From the IMG/VR virus record IMGVR_UViG_3300016476_000568, positions 1 through 30,472 of that record: 30,472 bases of DNA, one strand, 5' to 3'. The stretch comes from a virus (lineage: Duplodnaviria > Caudoviricetes). The notes under the pieces were generated by a model that was not told the DNA's origin, did no database searches, and was given only the letters and a program-made list of their open reading frames with translations. Shown here piece by piece: positions 650 through 23,337 of this stretch; positions within the stretch are counted from its first letter, which is position 1, and every line of letters starts with the position of its first letter. A program made the position numbers and the translations under genes.

Positions 650-1621
650 TTATGAAGCGTTAGCACCAATGCTGGATGCTGACTCAATTCGGCGGAGGCT
701 TGCCTCACGGAAGCGTCCGTATCCACCAAGCCAGTACCAACCGAGAGGCTGAAGACGCATGAGAAGGTCTGTCACGTTTCCACGGACAATCTTCGGAACA
801 GCGCCGTTACCATCGGTGATGGAGTGTGCCTTAGCAAGAGCCTGACGACCCATGATGAGCGTTGCATAAACGTCAATGTTTCCTGCTGCACCAGCGTTGT
901 CTGATGCGTTTGCAAACAATGGCGCACGAGGCGTCTCAATGAAACGGACACCTTCAAAGGTTCCGATTTCACCGTTGTAGATGCCTGATGGGTTGACGTA
1001 GTTTGCAGGGGTACGCCATGCTGCAGCGTCGGTTGAACTACGGAAGTCGTAGGACACGTCTGGGTGGATGTAGCCCATGTAGGTTCCGTTGAAGGTTGCT
1101 ACGTTTGCTGCACGAAGTTTTGCAACTTCCTTACGGACGTCATTCGCTGCAAGCACGTCATCGGAGTTGATGGTGGTACGGCTTGTTGGGTCGGTTGCAC
1201 CGCCCGTTGCGTATGACACGTTGGAACCGCCAGCAAGAACGTCACGCACAACACGGTCAATGGAGTCACCAGCGTTGTAACCAACAATGTTGGCTGCTGC
1301 TGCGTCAACGTCCAAGAACGAGGTTCCACGGAGTTTTGCGGTGGTAACAACTGCGTTACCGTATTCAGCGAGGGTAACTGTTACCTGGCTGTCCGACAAT
1401 GCAACTGGGGTAACGTCTGTTACTTCGTTGAGTGTGGAGGTTGCAGGCGACAAGTCGCTGAAGATTGTGAATGTGACAGCCGAACCTGGCATTGATTGTG
1501 CGGTTGGCATAACGTCTGCAGCCTGGTCAAACAAGAGTTCTGAACGCAATGCGAAATAGGCAATGCGGTCAAACGCTGTCTGGTCTACTGCAAGGGAGGA
1601 GGTAGTTGTTTCTCCAGCCAT
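650..1621 (-). CDS. Major capsid protein (N4-gp56-like family)
   Basis: 323 aa; VTLAEYGN, YIHPDVSYD, GEIGTFEGVRFIET and LGWY motifs; follows scaffold, precedes terminator. Confidence 0.92.
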   Translation of the reverse strand: MAGETTTSSLAVDQTAFDRIAYFALRSELLFDQAADVMPTAQSMPGSAVTFTIFSDLSPATSTLNEVTDVTPVALSDSQVTVTLAEYGNAVVTTAKLRGTSFLDVDAAAANIVGYNAGDSIDRVVRDVLAGGSNVSYATGGATDPTSRTTINSDDVLAANDVRKEVAKLRAANVATFNGTYMGYIHPDVSYDFRSSTDAAAWRTPANYVNPSGIYNGEIGTFEGVRFIETPRAPLFANASDNAGAAGNIDVYATLIMGRQALAKAHSITDGNGAVPKIVRGNVTDLLMRLQPLGWYWLGGYGRFREASLRRIESASSIGANAS

Positions 1622-12405: not shown

Positions 12406-14376
12406 TCACAGCCATGATGGACGCCACTGGCGGGGTGGCAGTTTGAACTGTGACAAGTTCGGGATATTCAAAGCAGCCATCCACATAGACATAACAATGT
12501 CTGTGCCGTTCTTTTTGTCACGGGTCCACTTAGTTAGTTCTTCTACAGCAGCGAGGGTTTTCCAGTTGCCACGCATATGAGGGAGACGAATAGCGCCTGT
12601 ACGGAACAATGGTGGTAGTAAAGCCTCCACGCCCATTTTCTCGTCCAGTTTGTTACGGGACGTGGTGTGTGGAATGACGTTTACGCCCATACGGGTTTGC
12701 CATTTCCGCACAAAGTCGTGCGCTAGAAGGAATCGTTGGGCTGCGTTGATTTCTACTACCCAATGTGAGATGGGGTAACCCATACGGAAGGAGCGTTCTT
12801 GCCAGTCTTCCATGATTCCTGTGTATTCACCTGTGGTGGTGTTGTAACCCAACAGGTCTTCGGCGGTTAGTTTGCACCGTTCAATGTCTATAACGTGGTA
12901 CAGGTTTTGGTTGGGTTGGTACAGAATCCATGTGAGCGCCCAGAACATCGTTGGGGAGGGGTCCACCGAAACAATGGACAATACGGGCGGTGCCAAACCA
13001 GCAGGTATCTCCCCATGTCCCCGTTCATGGTCAATACATCCTGGATATTGAACACCATCTTGTCCGAGTCCACCGTGAATCCAGGTTTTGTCAATGAGGT
13101 ACGCATCAAGGTCTAGTTCTCCTTGTTGATATACAACTTCAAAAACATCAGGTTTGTTGTAACGAATAAAGGATAGGTCTTTCCAGGGGAGACGTTTGGG
13201 GTCTAGGAGTGGCCCGTCTGGGTAGGCGGGTGCGTCAAATCGGCGGGATTCTTTCCCTGTGTCCAACTCTGGATAGTACGCCTGATAAATGATGTGTTTG
13301 TATTTGCTGGATTTGAGGGGTTCCATCGCATTGACCTGTTCAGGCGTAGTGACATCGGAACCGTCATAATCCTCATCATCCAAATCATAGGTAACTTTTG
13401 CGAGGCAATGTGCGTATAGGTCGCCTGGTCCGAGGCGCTGCCCAACAACAGCCAGCAACCCTCCTGGGTCGCAACGTGCTTCCGCCACGTTGTCCCATCT
13501 TTCAAGAAGTTTGTCACGGGCGACAGATTCACGGGCGTTGTCTGGGGACGCAACATCGTCAAATAAGCATAGGTCTGCACGGTGTCCGATGAATTCTGCT
13601 TCAATACCGTAAGCACGAACTGTAGGTTCTTTGTTATCAAGGCCATTCCCATCTAGTTGTTCCACCACAAATTCTTCGGCTCGCCATAATGCGCCTTTAT
13701 CTGTGGGTTTGAATCGTCCATAGTCTATGGATAGGCATCCTTTGGCGTTTTGTGCCAGCCCTTTAGCGACCAGTTGTGGGTCTGGTTCTATCGGCATAGG
13801 ACGTTCTAGGGTTTCACGGATACGGCGGGAGTACATCTTCGCCATATTTTGCGATACCGAGCCAATCATCACACGAATTTTGCGGTCACGAACGATAGCC
13901 CATACAGCAACATCGTGGAACAGGGTGGATTTGCCTGCGCCTGGGGGGACGTTGACGACTACGAATTCTTTTTCTTCCGACTCCAACAGTTTTACAAGTT
14001 CAAGTGCGGCTTCAACCTGCCACGGAGAAGGAACACGCCCCAAATAGTATTCACGAAAGAACGCAAAGTCCTCTTTACCTCGTTTTGCTTCTTCACATAA
14101 CTGGTCATCACCAAGAGCAGACGGCAATTCAATAGCATCCATAAACGAGTTGTACTCGTCACGCTGTCTACCGCCCTGGTCACGGACGTGTTTCTTCGCT
14201 GTGGCCTCTGCCGCATCAGCAGCAGCCTGCGCCGCTTTCGCTTTCTTCAACCATTTAGAACCAGTATTGACGTGTACACCTGCAGTTCTAGCGGCTTGGG
14301 TAATGGATTGGCCTGCGGAGATAGCAGCAAAGAATTTTGCTTTATCTGCTGGTGAGACTGAACGTTTTGTTCCCAT
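12406..14376 (-). CDS. terL: Terminase large subunit with N-terminal HTH
   Basis: Walker A VPPGAGKST, Walker B LCLFDD, nuclease SVDPS, VVEINAAQ, DIVMSMW; ATG at 14376 follows TGgTACTAT. Confidence 0.93.
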   Translation of the reverse strand: MGTKRSVSPADKAKFFAAISAGQSITQAARTAGVHVNTGSKWLKKAKAAQAAADAAEATAKKHVRDQGGRQRDEYNSFMDAIELPSALGDDQLCEEAKRGKEDFAFFREYYLGRVPSPWQVEAALELVKLLESEEKEFVVVNVPPGAGKSTLFHDVAVWAIVRDRKIRVMIGSVSQNMAKMYSRRIRETLERPMPIEPDPQLVAKGLAQNAKGCLSIDYGRFKPTDKGALWRAEEFVVEQLDGNGLDNKEPTVRAYGIEAEFIGHRADLCLFDDVASPDNARESVARDKLLERWDNVAEARCDPGGLLAVVGQRLGPGDLYAHCLAKVTYDLDDEDYDGSDVTTPEQVNAMEPLKSSKYKHIIYQAYYPELDTGKESRRFDAPAYPDGPLLDPKRLPWKDLSFIRYNKPDVFEVVYQQGELDLDAYLIDKTWIHGGLGQDGVQYPGCIDHERGHGEIPAGLAPPVLSIVSVDPSPTMFWALTWILYQPNQNLYHVIDIERCKLTAEDLLGYNTTTGEYTGIMEDWQERSFRMGYPISHWVVEINAAQRFLLAHDFVRKWQTRMGVNVIPHTTSRNKLDEKMGVEALLPPLFRTGAIRLPHMRGNWKTLAAVEELTKWTRDKKNGTDIVMSMWMAALNIPNLSQFKLPPRQWRPSWL

Positions 14377-14428
14377 GAGTGTTGCAAATAGTACCACACC
14401 CCTGTAGAGTTGGTGCTGAAATAATTAT

Positions 14429-14457
14429 TTGCCAAAATAAATTTCAACCTATATAGT
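14429..14457 (+). promoter_or_regulatory. Sigma70-type promoter for ncRNA 1
   Basis: TTGCCA-N17-TATAGT; +1 near 14464. Confidence 0.7.
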
Positions 14458-14463
14458 GTTAGT

Positions 14464-14661
14464 AGAGAAATAACGAAGCAGTAACGGCGGGACTGCACAA
14501 ACCAGCGACTAAGGCGTCCTACACAAGGGCATCGTATCCAACTAAACCTTCTAAACACAGCCTTGAAAACTGTGGGATACGGTGAAGATGCAGGGACATT
14601 ACGGCGCAGTTTGAACCACAGGTTTAGGTGGTCGTGGGTTCGGCTCCCATCTTATTTTTCT
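14464..14661 (+). ncRNA. Putative tRNA-shaped structured RNA with expanded anticodon-arm domain
   Basis: Terminal stem, D-like arm, long central arm, variable arm, T-like arm and an 8-bp loop pairing. Confidence 0.65.
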
Positions 14662-14669
14662 GCTACACT
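14661..14669 (+). promoter_or_regulatory. Extended -10 promoter for ncRNA 2
   Basis: TGcTACACT; predicted +1 coincides with the first stem at 14675. Confidence 0.6.
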
Positions 14670-14674
14670 ATGTA

Positions 14675-14932
14675 GCGCAACAGAGCAAGTCCCCCACGAT
14701 GGGAATCGTTAGGGCAAGCAGGGCTGTACCTCATTTGCACGAGGCGGGGCGTTTAATACACGGGAACGTGGGTTGATGTTTCCTGCAACCAAGCAAACAT
14801 TAAGTAGTTGATTGCCCCTGTTGCGTAAGAGAAACAAGCAGCGTCATCAACGTCATATGATGAAAACATGGTGTCGGCTAGAATTGCCACGGCGACCAAG
14901 AACATATTGTTCTGAACTGTGGGGGAGGCTAT
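14675..14932 (+). ncRNA. Putative large multi-pseudoknot RNA
   Basis: Many nested stems, two GNRA tetraloops, three long-range pairings, no ORF. Confidence 0.65.
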
Positions 14933-14952
14933 CTAGATTATCTGTTGACCTG

Positions 14953-15005
14953 TTCCGCTTCGCTGTCGCTTGCGGCTGACGCCCTCACTACGTTCGGTTG
15001 TCGGC
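14953..15005. other. ssDNA hairpin element resembling a primosome assembly or single-strand initiation site
   Basis: Minus strand has GAAGCGG and the GNA-triloop mini-hairpins GCGAAGC and ACGTAGT. Confidence 0.4.
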
Positions 15006-15361
15006 AGAGAAAACATGAACAAGCGTGATGCCCAGGTCCACCTCGGAGGGTTACTTTTCTTTTTTCTCTTTTTTTCTTTTGAGAATATTCAACTGCTCTA
15101 GAAGAAGAACCTCACAGACGTTCGGCCCGCCCAGACATATGTAAAACACGGACAGCAACCCACCCCATTCCAGAGCCAACCAACTTGCCAACCACACACG
15201 TCAGACCCCACCAACAACACAACACGGCACACACCAAAAGAGTGAAACCATCCCTCTCTGATATATACATACATAGCGCCCCCGTAGCCTCGGCAGACCC
15301 CCAGTTGCGGTAGGTTTTCTACCTACTAGACGGTAGGGACATTGCGTTACGCTACCCAACC

Positions 15362-15375
15362 CGAACAAATGTTCG
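15362..15375. promoter_or_regulatory. LexA (Gram-positive/actinobacterial SOS) box-like site
   Basis: CGAAC-AAAT-GTTCG. Confidence 0.6.
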
Positions 15376-15552
15376 CTAACTGTTGCTAGCACCCCCCACC
15401 ACCCCAGCAAGCACCACGAAAAGTCACAGACTGCCGACCAACAGTCAGAACGTAGACTGTCCGCCTAGAAATAATGAGAGTGGTTGGGAATGAGAATGGG
15501 TGGGAATGGGAGCAGTCGGTGTCTGTTGGTTGTGGCAGCGGGGCGCTGGTGG

Positions 15553-15566
15553 CGAACGTGTGTTCT
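15553..15566. promoter_or_regulatory. Second LexA box-like site
   Basis: CGAAC-GTGT-GTTCT abutting the CRP-like box. Confidence 0.5.
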
Positions 15567-15581
15567 GTGACAAGTGTCACA
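15566..15581. promoter_or_regulatory. CRP/GlxR-like operator, copy 1
   Basis: TGTGA-CAAGTG-TCACA, 10 nt upstream of the -35. Confidence 0.65.
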
Positions 15582-15591
15582 TAGAAAAGGC

Positions 15592-15620
15592 TTGACAGGG
15601 GGGTAGGGATTTTGTAACGT
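15592..15620 (+). promoter_or_regulatory. Early promoter P1
   Basis: TTGACA-N17-TAACGT. Confidence 0.7.
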
Positions 15621-15665
15621 AGTAGGCATAGAGGAACGGGGCAACCCGAACTAGTAGATAGAGAA

Positions 15666-15681
15666 TGTTTCACGTGAAACA
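15666..15681. other. parS: parS site (ParB-binding palindrome)
   Basis: TGTTTCACGTGAAACA, exact chromosomal consensus, within a 22-bp perfect palindrome (15663-15684). Confidence 0.85.
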
Positions 15682-15703
15682 TTCAGAGAGAAAGGTAGAG
15701 AGA

Positions 15704-15898
15704 ATGGCAACAGAGAGGTGCGAAGTGTGCGGTATTAGTTGGGAGACATACGAGGCAACCCAACCAGACTGCGAGGGTGGCGAGGAGTGCCACGATTGGG
15801 AAGACTCTATGAATGATGACGAAATGCCAGAGGGTGAGAACGTCATTATCGGCGGGCAGAGCGCCTACAAGGTGGGCGGGTTCATTACTTGGGATTAG
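15704..15898 (+). CDS. Small acidic Cys-rich early protein
   Basis: MATERCEVCG...; AGAAAGG RBS. Confidence 0.7.
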   Translation: MATERCEVCGISWETYEATQPDCEGGEECHDWEDSMNDDEMPEGENVIIGGQSAYKVGGFITWD

Positions 15899-15954
15899 CC
15901 GAAACGCCTACGGGCGTCTACGGGGGATAGTCTCCCCGTACTGACGAGGCAGAC
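15898..15954 (+). ncRNA. Hammerhead ribozyme, type II
   Basis: GCC-GAAA-CGCC(TACG)GGCG-TC^-TACGGGG(GATAGTCT)CCCCGTA-CTGACGA-GGC-AGAC; complete catalytic core. Confidence 0.92.
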
Positions 15955-15973
15955 AAATAGAAAGGGTCAGATA

Positions 15974-16150
15974 ATGAACACAACAACAGCGGACAAGTGG
16001 CAACACTTTACAGATACGGAAATAGACATTCTGTATTCGGCGTTAGCCCTCTACCGCAAGCAATGTCACAAGGTAATCCAACAGCAGGCGCACAAGGTGG
16101 CAGACGATTTGATTGCCGACCTAATCAACATTCCTAGAAAGGGGAACTAA
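15974..16150 (+). CDS. Small early protein, 58 aa (MNTTTADKWQHF...), not in ORF track
   Basis: AGAAAGGG RBS; TAATG coupling to next gene. Confidence 0.75.
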   Translation: MNTTTADKWQHFTDTEIDILYSALALYRKQCHKVIQQQAHKVADDLIADLINIPRKGN

Positions 16151-16350
16151 TGGCAACGAAATACAGGGCTATCTTTTACATACAAGATAGGAACGGCTAC
16201 AAGTGGGCGGAAACTACTACCCCACTATGGGACACATACGAAAAGGCGGATAGCACCGCCCGACAGTATGCGGACATCATCAACGGGGCTACCAGTCATA
16301 GGGTAGTGACGGGCTACGCAATCAAAACCACAGAAAGGGGCGAGCAATGA
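16150..16350 (+). CDS. Small early hypothetical protein
   Basis: 66 aa; AGAAAGGGG RBS. Confidence 0.75.
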   Translation: MATKYRAIFYIQDRNGYKWAETTTPLWDTYEKADSTARQYADIINGATSHRVVTGYAIKTTERGEQ

Positions 16351-16517
16351 ACAGAAACGACAACGTGACCGAACAGGAACTAGAGAACTATTACAACCTG
16401 AAATGGGCGCTAGCAATCCTGCGTAGGGTTCAGTCGGGGCAGGGTCGCCACGATTGGGAGTTACCTTACGCAATCAGACGGCTAGAACGGTTACAGGCAG
16501 GCATTACAGACAAGTGA
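16347..16517 (+). CDS. Small early protein, 56 aa (MNRNDNVTEQELENYY...), not in ORF track
   Basis: AGAAAGGGG RBS; ATGA overlap. Confidence 0.7.
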   Translation: MNRNDNVTEQELENYYNLKWALAILRRVQSGQGRHDWELPYAIRRLERLQAGITDK

Positions 16518-20527: not shown

Positions 20528-20711
20528 GTTCTACTTCCGACATTGGTGTGTCCTCTGTGTAGATACGGACTACAAGGATACAGGGGTCGCCCCCTTCGTC
20601 CCATTCTTTTTCTTCCGCTTCGGATTGGGGTACACCTTCGTGGGTGTCACACGCTATGCGTGAGCAGAACCCGTGTTCCCTGCCGATTGCTATCCATTCG
20701 TGTAGTTCCAT
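20517..20711 (-). CDS. Small phage protein (C..C.TH.G.P...W..G.DPC)
   Basis: TAATG overlap at 20711. Confidence 0.75.
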   Translation of the reverse strand: MELHEWIAIGREHGFCSRIACDTHEGVPQSEAEEKEWDEGGDPCILVVRIYTEDTPMSEVERDH

Positions 20712-21526
20712 TACAGACCGCACATCCCTTCACATTCTTGATTGAATAAAGACAAGATACCTTTTTCTTCTTTGGTTCTTAGGTCAGCCTCAGCCAACGG
20801 CACCTTTGACTGGTGTAGATACGGAGTCCCACGGTAACGGGCAACTAGATGTGGCAGTGTGCGTAAAGCATTATCAAACTCCACAGCATCAGCCCATTCT
20901 TCTTCGTTCTCCCGTAACGCCCGCCATTCGTCAGCGTTCTTGAAAGGACACCCAATGCAGGCGGAACGAGGGGGGAGTGCGTACCCTTTTTCGGCGCACC
21001 AATCCAAACAATCTTGTCTGGTGATGCGCTTGTCAATCAGTGGGTATTCGTGTTGTATCCACGAGAACTGTGGGTCTTTGATGCGTTGCACTTCGTCCCA
21101 AGAGATACCGATAATGGTTGTGATGCGGTGTTCTTTGCAGCGTTGACCTGATTTCAGACCAGCCAGTTCTCTTTGCTTCTTCATCAGTGGGGCAAGTTTG
21201 TATTCGGCTGTGCATTGACGGCGCACCATACCTTTCTTGCCGTCCTCACCAATAAGGTGCAATGGCATAGAGGCGTACCGTTTCCCGTCAGTCAGGAAAT
21301 CTTCCCTGATGTTTCCCTTTGACACCATATGGAATGGCATCTTTGCTTCTTCCATTAGCCCTTTGAGATAGTCAAGGTGTTTGTACACAGCCTTTGGTTC
21401 CCAGCCTGTGTCGGCAAAGATAACGTGGTCGGCTCGTTCTACTTCACCGTGCAACATCATCAGCAACAAGGTGGTTGATTGCACCCCTGCCCCCAACGAT
21501 AAAACTCTTAGAGGGTATTCACTCAT
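20711..21526 (-). CDS. PAPS-reductase-like PP-loop (adenine nucleotide alpha hydrolase) protein
   Basis: SLGAGVQST, FADTGWE, RQCT..YK..P, IGISWDE, SACIGCPF, terminal CEGMC. Confidence 0.85.
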   Translation of the reverse strand: MSEYPLRVLSLGAGVQSTTLLLMMLHGEVERADHVIFADTGWEPKAVYKHLDYLKGLMEEAKMPFHMVSKGNIREDFLTDGKRYASMPLHLIGEDGKKGMVRRQCTAEYKLAPLMKKQRELAGLKSGQRCKEHRITTIIGISWDEVQRIKDPQFSWIQHEYPLIDKRITRQDCLDWCAEKGYALPPRSACIGCPFKNADEWRALRENEEEWADAVEFDNALRTLPHLVARYRGTPYLHQSKVPLAEADLRTKEEKGILSLFNQECEGMCGL

Positions 21527-21614
21527 TGTCTTTCCTTTCGTACCACCAGTTCAGTGCTGTCGCAACCAGTACACAGTACAGGAGTATGAGTATGGGTGCG
21601 TACAGGAAGAACAC
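21519..21614 (-). CDS. 31 aa hydrophobic peptide, not in ORF track
   Basis: GTG start overlapping the ssb stop; MFFLYAPILILLYCVLVATALNWWYERKDNE. Confidence 0.5.
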   Translation of the reverse strand: MFFLYAPILILLYCVLVATALNWWYERKDNE

Positions 21615-22015
21615 TAGAATGGTTCTTCGTCCGACAGTGCTGGCATTTGCTTACCGATAAAGCCTGTCTGCGCCATTACCTTTTCGGTTTGGTCAGCAAC
21701 CCAAGCGTTCCAGCGGCAGGAAGCACCAACTTCGTCTGCGATTAGTTTGCGGGCGACACCTTTTGTGCCGTCTTTCTTGGTGTATTCCTCTTGCTCAAAG
21801 CGACCCGTGATGATGACGCTTGTGCCTTTGGTGATGGTGTTGGCTACGTTCTCTGCGAGTTTGCCGAACACCATAATGTCCCACCAGGTTGTTTTCTTTT
21901 TGTCATCTTTGCCGTAGTTGTCTGCCACGGTGAAGGTGAGTACGGCGTTTCCGCCTTGTGAGAAACGGAGGTCTGGTTCTTTACCGACTGTTCCGTGTAC
22001 GGTTACATTGTTCAT
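21614..22015 (-). CDS. ssb: Single-stranded DNA-binding protein
   Basis: OB-fold motifs G....P.LRF, GKLAEN, acidic EEPF tail. Confidence 0.93.
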   Translation of the reverse strand: MNNVTVHGTVGKEPDLRFSQGGNAVLTFTVADNYGKDDKKKTTWWDIMVFGKLAENVANTITKGTSVIITGRFEQEEYTKKDGTKGVARKLIADEVGASCRWNAWVADQTEKVMAQTGFIGKQMPALSDEEPF

Positions 22016-22029
22016 TTGTTTCTTCCCTT

Positions 22030-22674
22030 CTAAGGATTGAATAGTGGCAGTGGTACATCTACCCCTGACCAGTTTACTTTGTTCACGATGTTTATCAACT
22101 TTGGTGTATTTTTATCGGGTCCGAAAGCCAGATAAGTTCCATCAACAGAGTCAACACCCCATTGTTTTGCTAACAACATTCGTTTGAAAGAGTTTACTCT
22201 ACCCATATGTACCCATATGGATAAAGATTTTGCTTTTTGGCACATTTCTTTTGCTGTGTTTGACAATTTGAATTCTGTTGTGCCTCCAATAAACAAACAT
22301 CCCATTGTTTCCCACGGGATTGTTGCTTCTTCTGCCCCGTCTTGGAGAACAAACGCTGGTTTGTACCCCAGGTCAGCAACCGTTTTATAATAGTGGTTCC
22401 ATCTTTCAACAGTCTTATCGTGGTCTGCGACCACATCGGGAACCGTGGCAAATAAAGCATCCTTTGGATTGTCAAAACTTTTAAGCCACGAAACCCACAC
22501 GTTTTCGTCCCATTTCTCAGCGAAGCACCCGTTATCAGCAGCCCAAGACCACTGATACGGGGACGCTTTCGTGCTTCGTTGACTAAATGGTGTAAGCATC
22601 ATTCCTATGCCATTATCTTGTAATGCTTTTTGGATTTCAAGATTTGAAGGCAGGCATCCGCTTAGATAAATCAT
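22030..22674 (-). CDS. TGT-fold protein, candidate DpdA-like DNA deazaguanine transglycosylase
   Basis: DNGCF (cf. DSGGF), PDVV, VLQDG, FIGG, VHMGRVN, DSVDGT in TGT order; adjacent to VUT gene. Confidence 0.65.
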   Translation of the reverse strand: MIYLSGCLPSNLEIQKALQDNGIGMMLTPFSQRSTKASPYQWSWAADNGCFAEKWDENVWVSWLKSFDNPKDALFATVPDVVADHDKTVERWNHYYKTVADLGYKPAFVLQDGAEEATIPWETMGCLFIGGTTEFKLSNTAKEMCQKAKSLSIWVHMGRVNSFKRMLLAKQWGVDSVDGTYLAFGPDKNTPKLINIVNKVNWSGVDVPLPLFNP

Positions 22675-23176
22675 TCGCAATCCAAATCAAAACACCACCG
22701 ACTAAAGCCATTTGTGTTTTGCCGATAACCTGACCTTGCCAATACTGGGTTGAGCCAAAAGCAATTTGTAAGAACACGAACGAGTCAATGACCCCGCCAA
22801 TAAAACCTGACGAGACTACAGCGCCAACTAGTGTTTTTTCTTTGAGGTTTGAATACACCAAAAAGTCTGCCAGTTCACCCAATGCGAAGGCTACTGCGCT
22901 GGCAATGGCTACGGCAGGGTTGATGAAGTACGACAGAAGGACACCAACACCCATAGCCTGCAATGTGGTTGTCTTGCCATATGTGTTTTGCACAATGTCA
23001 CGCATAAACATCGCAATGCCAATCATCAGAACACCTGATGGGGCGTTGTACCCAAACCCTACTGGGATTGTGTGTGGTCCTCCTGGAAAAAATTGAGTTC
23101 CTACATTGGAAATCATCCAGTTGGCAATGGGAATTGTCGCTAAGTACAAACTGATTAGTGTGATTTTCTTTCTCAT
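22637..23176 (-). CDS. VUT/YhhQ family queuosine-precursor transporter
   Basis: Multi-TM; ANW, RDIVQ..YG, IASAVAF..GELADF.VY, DSFVFL.IAFG, GQVIGK. Confidence 0.88.
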   Translation of the reverse strand: MRKKITLISLYLATIPIANWMISNVGTQFFPGGPHTIPVGFGYNAPSGVLMIGIAMFMRDIVQNTYGKTTTLQAMGVGVLLSYFINPAVAIASAVAFALGELADFLVYSNLKEKTLVGAVVSSGFIGGVIDSFVFLQIAFGSTQYWQGQVIGKTQMALVGGVLIWIANDLSKRMPAFKS

Positions 23177-23337
23177 TTTGTTTCTTCCTTCTTTGGTTGG
23201 AGATTTACTATCCGCATCGCCTTCTTTGGGCAGGGGTGTTGCGGTGGGCTTGTCAATGTCACATACGTTGTGACTGACACATTGCAAGATGGGCAGTACC
23301 AATCTTGTCTGAGACTTATTCCCTTCATTGCGCTCAT
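23173..23337 (-). CDS. 54 aa zinc-ribbon-like protein, not in ORF track
   Basis: WYCPSC...HPC; ATGA overlap with the VUT gene. Confidence 0.65.
   Translation of the reverse strand: MSAMKGISLRQDWYCPSCNVSVTTYVTLTSPPQHPCPKKAMRIVNLQPKKEETK

Follow-up and report, generated by a model that had tools for sequence, protein, structure and literature searches.

What is the tRNA-shaped RNA that appears to be encoded beside the terminase gene of a phage, and why would a phage carry it? The stretch of DNA analysed here (the window) is a 30,472-base virus record that encodes terminase, portal, capsid, RusA and WhiB proteins (PHROGs), and the WhiB gene suggests an actinobacterial host. A sequence-only reading of this DNA had described an unclassified tRNA-mimic RNA, in which a large folded insert (hereafter the cargo) replaces the anticodon arm within a tRNA-like shell. 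The reason that small phages carry non-decoding tRNA-like RNAs has been a standing question since the T4 RNAs rnaC and rnaD.

Anatomy and genomic setting of the element

Every stem proposed in the sequence-only reading, the 5-bp insert helix included, is present at its proposed position (Table 1), and the nested cloverleaf that it had drawn is the single-strand minimum free energy structure of positions 14464-14661. The stability of this fold is modest when taken alone (z -1.71; 11 of 200 shuffles equally stable), and for positions 14455-14670 the value is z -2.85, with none of 200 shuffles equally stable. The decisive support for the predicted structure comes from covariation among homologues, as described below. 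ARAGORN calls nothing in the window, and no family of Rfam 15 matches the element when the window is searched at gathering thresholds, when positions 14300-16500 are searched at E values up to 10, or when 10 related loci are searched.

Table 1. Features of the element and of its flanks in the window (position 1 is the first base of the window).
Feature	Positions	Strand	Remarks
Promoter-like site TTGCAA-17-TAGAGT	14382..14410	+	upstream of the element; 8/12 consensus matches, below scan threshold
Sigma-70-type promoter-like site	14429..14457	+	predicted start ~14464, the first terminal-stem base
Element	14464-14661	+	in the gap diverging from the terminase start (14376, minus strand)
Terminal (acceptor-like) stem, 5' strand	14464..14473	+	pairs with 14652-14661; extendable to 14 contiguous pairs; family covariation
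CGAA linker	14474..14477	+	its C lies opposite junction base 14651
D arm	14478..14496	+	5-bp stem; 9-nt loop whose GG is predicted to contact the T loop
Cargo domain replacing the anticodon arm	14498..14613	+	covariation; core re-found by cargo-only searches
Cargo closing stem	14498-502/14609-13	+	
Cargo conserved irregular helix	14503-16/14597-609	+	
Cargo stem (GTCC/GGAC)	14516-19/14594-97	+	
Cargo 10-bp helix	14530-39/14575-84	+	
Cargo loop	14540-55	+	
Cargo loop octamer	14542..14549	+	complement of the variable-arm loop; predicted pseudoknot, pairing window-specific
Cargo hairpin	14556-74	+	
Variable arm	14615..14632	+	5-bp hairpin, 8-nt loop
T arm	14634..14650	+	loop TTCGGCT, G at 58; family consensus TTCGACT
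Terminal stem, 3' strand	14652..14664	+	without CCA
TG-extended -10 box of the next, separate conserved RNA	14661..14669	+	box 14664-69; overlaps the 3' end of the element

The promoter-like site proposed ahead of the element is indeed there, and it is the only one within 13000-16500. It has 10/12 matches and shuffles give 3.7, and thus the match is weak by itself. Across the family, a TANNNT hexamer lies 13-22 nt before the CGAA linker in 27 of 38 members, with 30 matches in those 10 positions compared with 16 in the other roughly 70. With this spacing, the transcript start would fall on the first base of the terminal stem. The weaker upstream site occupies the location where relatives lacking the element carry the promoter of the neighbouring RNA (comparison with L002, L003 and L027). 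At the opposite end, the T arm together with the U-rich strand behind it scores like an intrinsic terminator. The terminal stem can be extended into both -10 boxes (14455-14473 and 14652-14670), and an imperfect inverted repeat containing promoter sequence thus encloses the element; this repeat may record how the element was inserted.

Positions 14675-14935 (+) hold a second candidate for a conserved structured non-coding RNA, of ~260 nt and with its own extended -10 box. This neighbouring RNA has no Rfam match, and 18 of its 32 predicted pairs exhibit two-sided change in a rough alignment of 48 sequences. As a core feature of the phage group, it was found at 66 of 81 terminase-linked loci, most of which do not have the element. 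The suggestion that the element is an RNase P-processed leader for this RNA does not survive the comparison. The -10 box of the neighbour matches the promoter of relatives that lack the element, and the element is therefore not its required leader; moreover, the element occurs at 6 of 79 loci only, and other family members lie far from the neighbouring RNA.

Terminase-linked loci without the element number 73 of 79, many of them with short flanks, and the nearest relatives with upstream DNA, L002 (96%) and L003 (94%), clearly lack it. Three cargo classes (L004/L014, L013/L066/L069 and L038) share the one slot ahead of the neighbouring RNA. Other members are located ahead of DnaB, in the interval from terminase to portal, or in further gene neighbourhoods, with flanks that vary by group, and the genes flanking metagenome members are phage-type where PHROGs names them. 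The distribution of the element is of the accessory type, patchy and optional. An ordinary tRNA gene is missing from 9 of 10 carrier records, which argues that the element is not part of a tRNA supply cluster. The sole tRNA among these 10 carriers is a normal tRNA-Thr(UGU) in L014 (1854-1926, -), directly behind the element and ahead of the promoter of the neighbouring RNA. No dedicated partner protein was found among 11 carrier genomes, whose shared proteins are core phage genes (up to 3.5 kb of some records fell outside this comparison).

Two further features of the window lie away from the element. A Type II hammerhead ribozyme (15897-15958, +; 57.6 bits), the only Rfam match in the window, is located just before a run of small ORFs. 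A PAPS-reductase-like gene and a Vut_1-family gene lie close together (20711-23302, -), and the pair is possibly a DNA-modification or precursor-uptake module.

The family and its shell

Sequence comparisons place the element in an uncatalogued phage RNA family that numbers at least 41 distinct sequences and is united by a predicted tRNA-like shell. This shell comprises a terminal stem of at least 7 bp, an unpaired C opposite C or A, a CGAA linker, a 5-bp D arm and a 5-bp T arm. The lead came from some terminase relatives that had identical D-arm letters and a shorter insert, and pattern scans followed. The D-arm pattern gave 43 matches in viral sequences, consisting of 32 full shells, one cut at a contig end, and 10 from a single coding-sequence family that lacks the shell and was not counted as members. 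Metagenomes yielded 71 matches, of which 30 have a canonical T arm and a few more have variant T loops. None of the 27 GTDB matches has a T arm by pattern; nine of the 27 were inspected, and the four scored with the model reached 21-25 bits on the D arm only. A structure-based parse resulted in 41 distinct members, including that of the window, with 30-180 nt between the D and T arms; members L135, L145 and L247 lie outside this parse.

A covariance model trained on 15 short members only detects the window element (14466-14660, 45 bits) and gives no match to the L014 tRNA-Thr or the T4 RNAs rnaC and rnaD. Applied to 151 Actinomycetota genomes, some of them flagged as unpublished, with 23 candidates scored per genome, the model returned four matches, all of them tRNA-His, tRNA-Met or tmRNA ends. 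Blastn searches of 50,697 annotated phages with the window element, L123 and L112 gave only short chance or T-arm matches, and thus no cultured carrier was found. The tRNA and Rfam scans miss all members checked. No description of the family was found in the full-text literature, a search that subscription papers fall outside of, and the family or part of it may be an unnamed entry among the 10,006 viral candidate RNAs of PMC10690425. With covarying homologues and nothing found by Rfam or ARAGORN, the designation as an unclassified tRNA-mimic RNA is supported.

Three other loci are of separate interest. L371 was rejected as a member: it matched a 17-mer by chance, and the locus is a group I intron in a viral contig (1035-1369, +; 65 bits), followed by a 315-aa ORF. 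Xanthomonas phage Soumapaz (L283, 534-632) carries an unannotated, degenerate tRNA-like sequence that does not belong to the family, with a canonical T arm and a promoter-like site ahead. A weak tRNA-like match (18.5 bits) in L024 (443-540, -) has a T arm and a different 5' part.

The terminal stem is strongly covariant. Among 38 members, the heptamer that precedes CGAA is paired with the strand beginning one base past the T stem in 244 of 266 cells, compared with 119±9 cells in 2,000 partner shuffles. An alignment of 28 sequences has 96.2% of its cells paired and 124 two-sided changes, and slid controls give 41-53%. The D arm also covaries (A-U/G-C at pair 3; G-U/G-C/A-U at pair 1). Across the 41 members, the base opposite the C of CGAA is C in 26 and A in 15, and is never G or U, and the base preceding the T stem is C in 39. 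C56 is likewise found in 39 of 41, and U55 was a requirement of the parse. The absence of A58, pointed out in the sequence-only reading, is true of the window but atypical of the family, since A58 is present in 35 of 41 and G58 occurs only in the window and five other members. The variable arm, too, was correctly located in the window, but its hairpin is optional across the family.

Because most members were collected by the D-arm pattern, the invariance of this arm is partly circular. Cargo-only searches provide an independent check: of their 26 distinct matches, 10 are chance and 16 carry a tRNA shell. Thirteen of these 16 shells have the same D arm, one has a single-base variant of it, and two have an alternative D arm.

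The acceptor stem, D arm and T arm occur in cloverleaf order, as in tRNA (RF00005). However, an anticodon-like arm (7-nt loop with U33) is present in none of the 41 members, even the shortest, and without an anticodon loop the members cannot read codons. None has the U8, the 2-nt linker or the T stem directly on the acceptor 3' strand that are seen in tRNA; instead, all 41 carry the CGAA linker and the extra C or A. Two standard tRNA core contacts are lacking, since U8 is absent and position 15 is variable opposite a fixed C48, and the core is therefore non-standard. The terminal stem varies in length between 7 and about 15 bp, one of 38 members has ACCA behind it, and there is no fixed discriminator, findings which suggest that charging is unlikely to be general. 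In the window and its close group, the stems are U-rich, 10-14 bp long and devoid of an ACCA-like end.

Cargo classes and contacts with the variable region

The cargo of the window belongs to a class characterized by an irregular helix of CAGCGACUAAG with CAUUACGGCGC, which is common to a second subgroup located ahead of a DnaB-like helicase. The 51 pairs named for the window's group (9 sequences) are formed in 95.1% of cells, a level that none of 500 shuffles reaches, and 20 of these pairs carry two-sided changes. The second subgroup (7 sequences) reaches 99.2%, with nine pairs showing two-sided change. RNAalifold recovers the same main helices, with two-sided change at 25 of 59 pairs and the innermost core registered differently. 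These cargo counts come from related sequences rather than from independent events.

Other cargo classes are unrelated in sequence, and the short classes have conserved loops of their own. The smallest members, L136 and L145, have 30-32 nt between the arms and almost no cargo. L372, L374 and L381 carry the same cargo core as the window's class in an alternative shell (8/5, with a 2-nt linker, a long D stem of 6 or 7 bp and a 4-nt loop) at the same DnaB-linked locus; in L372 this shell lies at about 1060-1245 (-). The shell and flanks of L372 and L374 are identical, and the distal cargo alone differs. The cargo is interchangeable. The interpretation given in the sequence-only reading is upheld in part; it missed that shell and cargo are separable modules. 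The near-invariance of the cargo core across two subgroups, surviving a change of D arm, suggests that the cargo and not the shell may do the job.

Two pseudoknots had been proposed from the window sequence. In the first (CTAAACCT/AGGTTTAG), the 8-nt loop-loop complement is exact, but the pairing is found in the window only; about 0.2-0.4% of shuffles give such a complement, a figure to be read as post hoc. The recurring design appears to be a variable region that pairs with a distal cargo loop, regardless of the specific letters. In seven of 14 long members, the variable region can form at least six Watson-Crick pairs with a cargo loop that is predicted to be unpaired, compared with 12.6% of mismatched member pairs (combined p about 0.01, with members that are not independent), and the remaining seven show no such pairing beyond chance. 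In L117, L118 and L196, an apical hairpin loop can pair with the variable region over 7-9 bp using different letters. The five pairs of the second proposed pseudoknot (CCTTG/CAAGG) exist in the window but do not exceed chance there (p 0.07); five are also possible in L118 and six in L128, and the pseudoknot is absent in 7 of 10.

Possible roles and known tRNA-like RNAs

We hypothesize, with a probability of roughly 40%, that the element is a trans-acting, non-cleavable tRNA decoy, a step of the argument that rests on anatomy and distribution. The element would be a stand-alone gene transcribed from its own promoter, and its leaderless transcript would start at the terminal stem. The RNA is modelled to fold into an L-shaped shell through contacts of the D-loop GG with U55 and C56 of the T loop, while the cargo domain would dock on the variable region. 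Such an RNA would neither decode nor, mostly, be charged, and would be bound by a host tRNA-recognising protein as a substrate that is not productively cut or modified. If we were to guess, the target would most plausibly be a defence or toxin enzyme that damages tRNA, or a stress factor that senses tRNA, in an actinobacterial host, and the cargo might add affinity or specificity.

Several observations argue for a decoy. The shell is kept while the stem sequence turns over, an anticodon arm is found in 0/41, and the elbow bases are retained. A promoter-like site of its own precedes the element in 27 of 38 members, the distribution is of the accessory type, and no dedicated partner gene was found. 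Precedents are the tRNA mimicry of YrlA (PMC4201824) and an inhibitory phage tRNA-like domain (TLD; PMC4131195, PMC11915505). Counting against a decoy are the two missing core contacts, G58 in 6 of 41 members, the partly circular invariance of the D arm and the near-invariant cargo core. We also consider, though we are more doubtful of it, a modular actinophage platform in which a fixed, non-decoding, tRNA-Sec-like shell would carry exchangeable payloads, swapped like accessory genes, to give RNA-only inhibitors of tRNA-targeting defences or stress sensors. A true decoy would constitute an RNA-only counter-defence. The family is in any case a clean comparative test set, with one shell that bears no, short or long cargo and that is present or absent at one slot in close relatives.

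A rival that we regard as possible, if doubtful, is that the shell only stabilises or presents the cargo, and that each cargo class is an aptamer-like effector with its own protein or ligand. Compensatory changes preserve the core CAGCGACUAAG/CAUUACGGCGC in the two long subgroups and also within the alternative shell, all 16 genuine cargo-selected loci have a tRNA shell, the distal cargo differs within the common shell and flanks of L372 and L374, and short classes have their own conserved loops. However, pairing alone does not account for the conservation of the D loop and CGAA linker, which extends to 13 of the 16 cargo-selected loci and to one single-base variant, and two members (L136 and L145, 30-32 nt between arms) are almost cargo-free. 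If true, this alternative would make the family a natural version of a laboratory trick, pointing to several new RNA folds. We judge it unlikely that the element acts in cis as a promoter insulator, a terminator or a processed leader for the neighbouring RNA or the divergent terminase gene. The terminator-like score of the T arm and U-rich strand, the 3' end that overlaps the next -10 box and the fixed position in the terminase-linked group fit such a role, but the neighbouring RNA (66/81 loci) mostly does without the element, a tRNA-Thr intervenes between the two in L014, and other members lie at the DnaB, terminase-portal and further sites named above.

LeuRS and SerRS ignore the anticodon, and a synthetase of this type might charge the RNA, which would then interfere with EF-Tu or the ribosome. 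The DnaB-linked subgroup has a 7-bp stem followed by A and CC-like bases, and there is a resemblance to tRNA-Sec in the 13-bp acceptor-plus-T length and in the alternative D arm; nevertheless, the U-rich 10-14-bp stems of the window and its close group, which lack an ACCA-like end, and the unconserved acceptor sequence make charging very unlikely. Most improbable of all, in our estimation, is a tRNA interrupted by a self-splicing or self-cleaving RNA. A folded, pseudoknotted insert does sit at the usual intron position, and a hammerhead lies elsewhere in the window. However, an Rfam intron and ribozyme search of the window and 10 related loci is negative for the element while its positive controls, the group I intron of L371 and the window's hammerhead, are detected. 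In addition, no U33 anticodon loop could be rebuilt from the bases that flank the closing stem, and the inserts are of unrelated types of 30-180 nt.

Two rivals arise directly from known RNAs. YrlA is described as a tRNA mimic with near-invariant D and T stems, encoded within 4 kb of Ro60 (PMC4201824). Like YrlA and Yrn1, the element is non-decoding, has near-invariant D and T stems, occurs in the setting of Actinobacteria and phages, and carries a CGAA-type motif near its 5' end (PMC4201824). A Y-RNA-like ligand of host Ro60/Rsr in the Yrn1 orientation (terminal stem, D-like arm, T arm) would draw on these likenesses, and the invariant CGAAG overlaps the Rsr motif GNCGAAN0-1G. However, YrlA has a permuted T-AS-D order (same source) whereas D precedes T in all family members, and the cargo of the family is large and interchangeable. 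The full Rsr motif is found in 8 of 38 members, the window not among them, with CGAA itself fixed by the search pattern. No TROVE (Ro60) gene was found in 18 carrier records, seven of them at least 90% complete, or among the window ORFs (PHROGs), and Rfam gives no match. We therefore rejected identity with YrlA and consider a Ro60 ligand quite unlikely.

Mycobacteriophage DS6A is a small actinophage with a single tRNA-like RNA, in this respect similar to the carriers described here; its TLD-only tmRNA is incapable of decoding and reportedly inhibits a tRNA-like pathway of the host (PMC4131195, PMC11915505). A tmRNA-derived decoy of SmpB would be in keeping with a D-arm segment that resembles the 5' end of some actinobacterial tmRNAs, a T arm that can be identical to theirs, and weak RF00023 scores of 13-18 bits in three members. 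However, the DS6A TLD retains G3-U70 and UCGAC and has no D stem, and it scores 9.3 bits with the family model compared with 45 for the window. The element lacks the tmRNA invariants, of which GG..UCGAC is seen in 26 of 26 tmRNAs from actinobacteria, and has a profile score of -2 versus 19 that 7% of shuffles equal, and the GAC that precedes the T arm of tmRNA occurs in 4 of 38 members. The sequence-only reading was right that a tmRNA alanine acceptor is lacking, as G3-U70 was not found in the listed stems, and that there is no convincing tag frame, as three-frame translation of long members reveals no shared tag and ARAGORN reports none. Missing invariants, G3-U70 and tag frame, together with the presence of a D stem, led us to reject tmRNA or TLD identity, and make an SmpB decoy highly improbable.

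Other known RNAs resemble the family in single respects. The T4 RNAs rnaC and rnaD (species 1 and 2 RNAs) are stable phage RNAs with tRNA-like ends and a role described as unknown (PMC3014915, PMC12685909), and rnaD has a short D-like stem whose loop end is similar to that of the family. They differ in lying within a tRNA cluster, in having no family-model match and in sharing no cargo; kinship was rejected given the lack of sequence or model similarity and carriers that are not tRNA clusters. The shell attains the 13-bp acceptor-plus-T length of tRNA-Sec (RF01852) if the C-C/C-A opposition is counted as pair 8. The geometry of the alternative shell (L372, L374, L381) matches that of actinobacterial tRNA-Sec (17 examples), whereas that of the window does not, and the family lacks an anticodon arm, UCA and any RF01852 match. 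Allo-tRNAs have 8/4 or 9/3 stems and anticodons (PMC7609411), and the family, having no anticodon, was not assigned to them. A resemblance to rRNA was also set aside, with 2 of 63 comparisons at p <=0.05, which is the chance level.

In the engineered tRNA scaffold for recombinant RNA, a foreign folded RNA is placed in the anticodon stem of a tRNA shell. The family differs in being natural, in its non-canonical shell and in a predicted pseudoknot between cargo and variable arm. Set against these systems, the members are real, uncatalogued phage RNAs that represent a variant of the tRNA-mimic RNAs, with shell-plus-cargo modularity as their distinctive trait.
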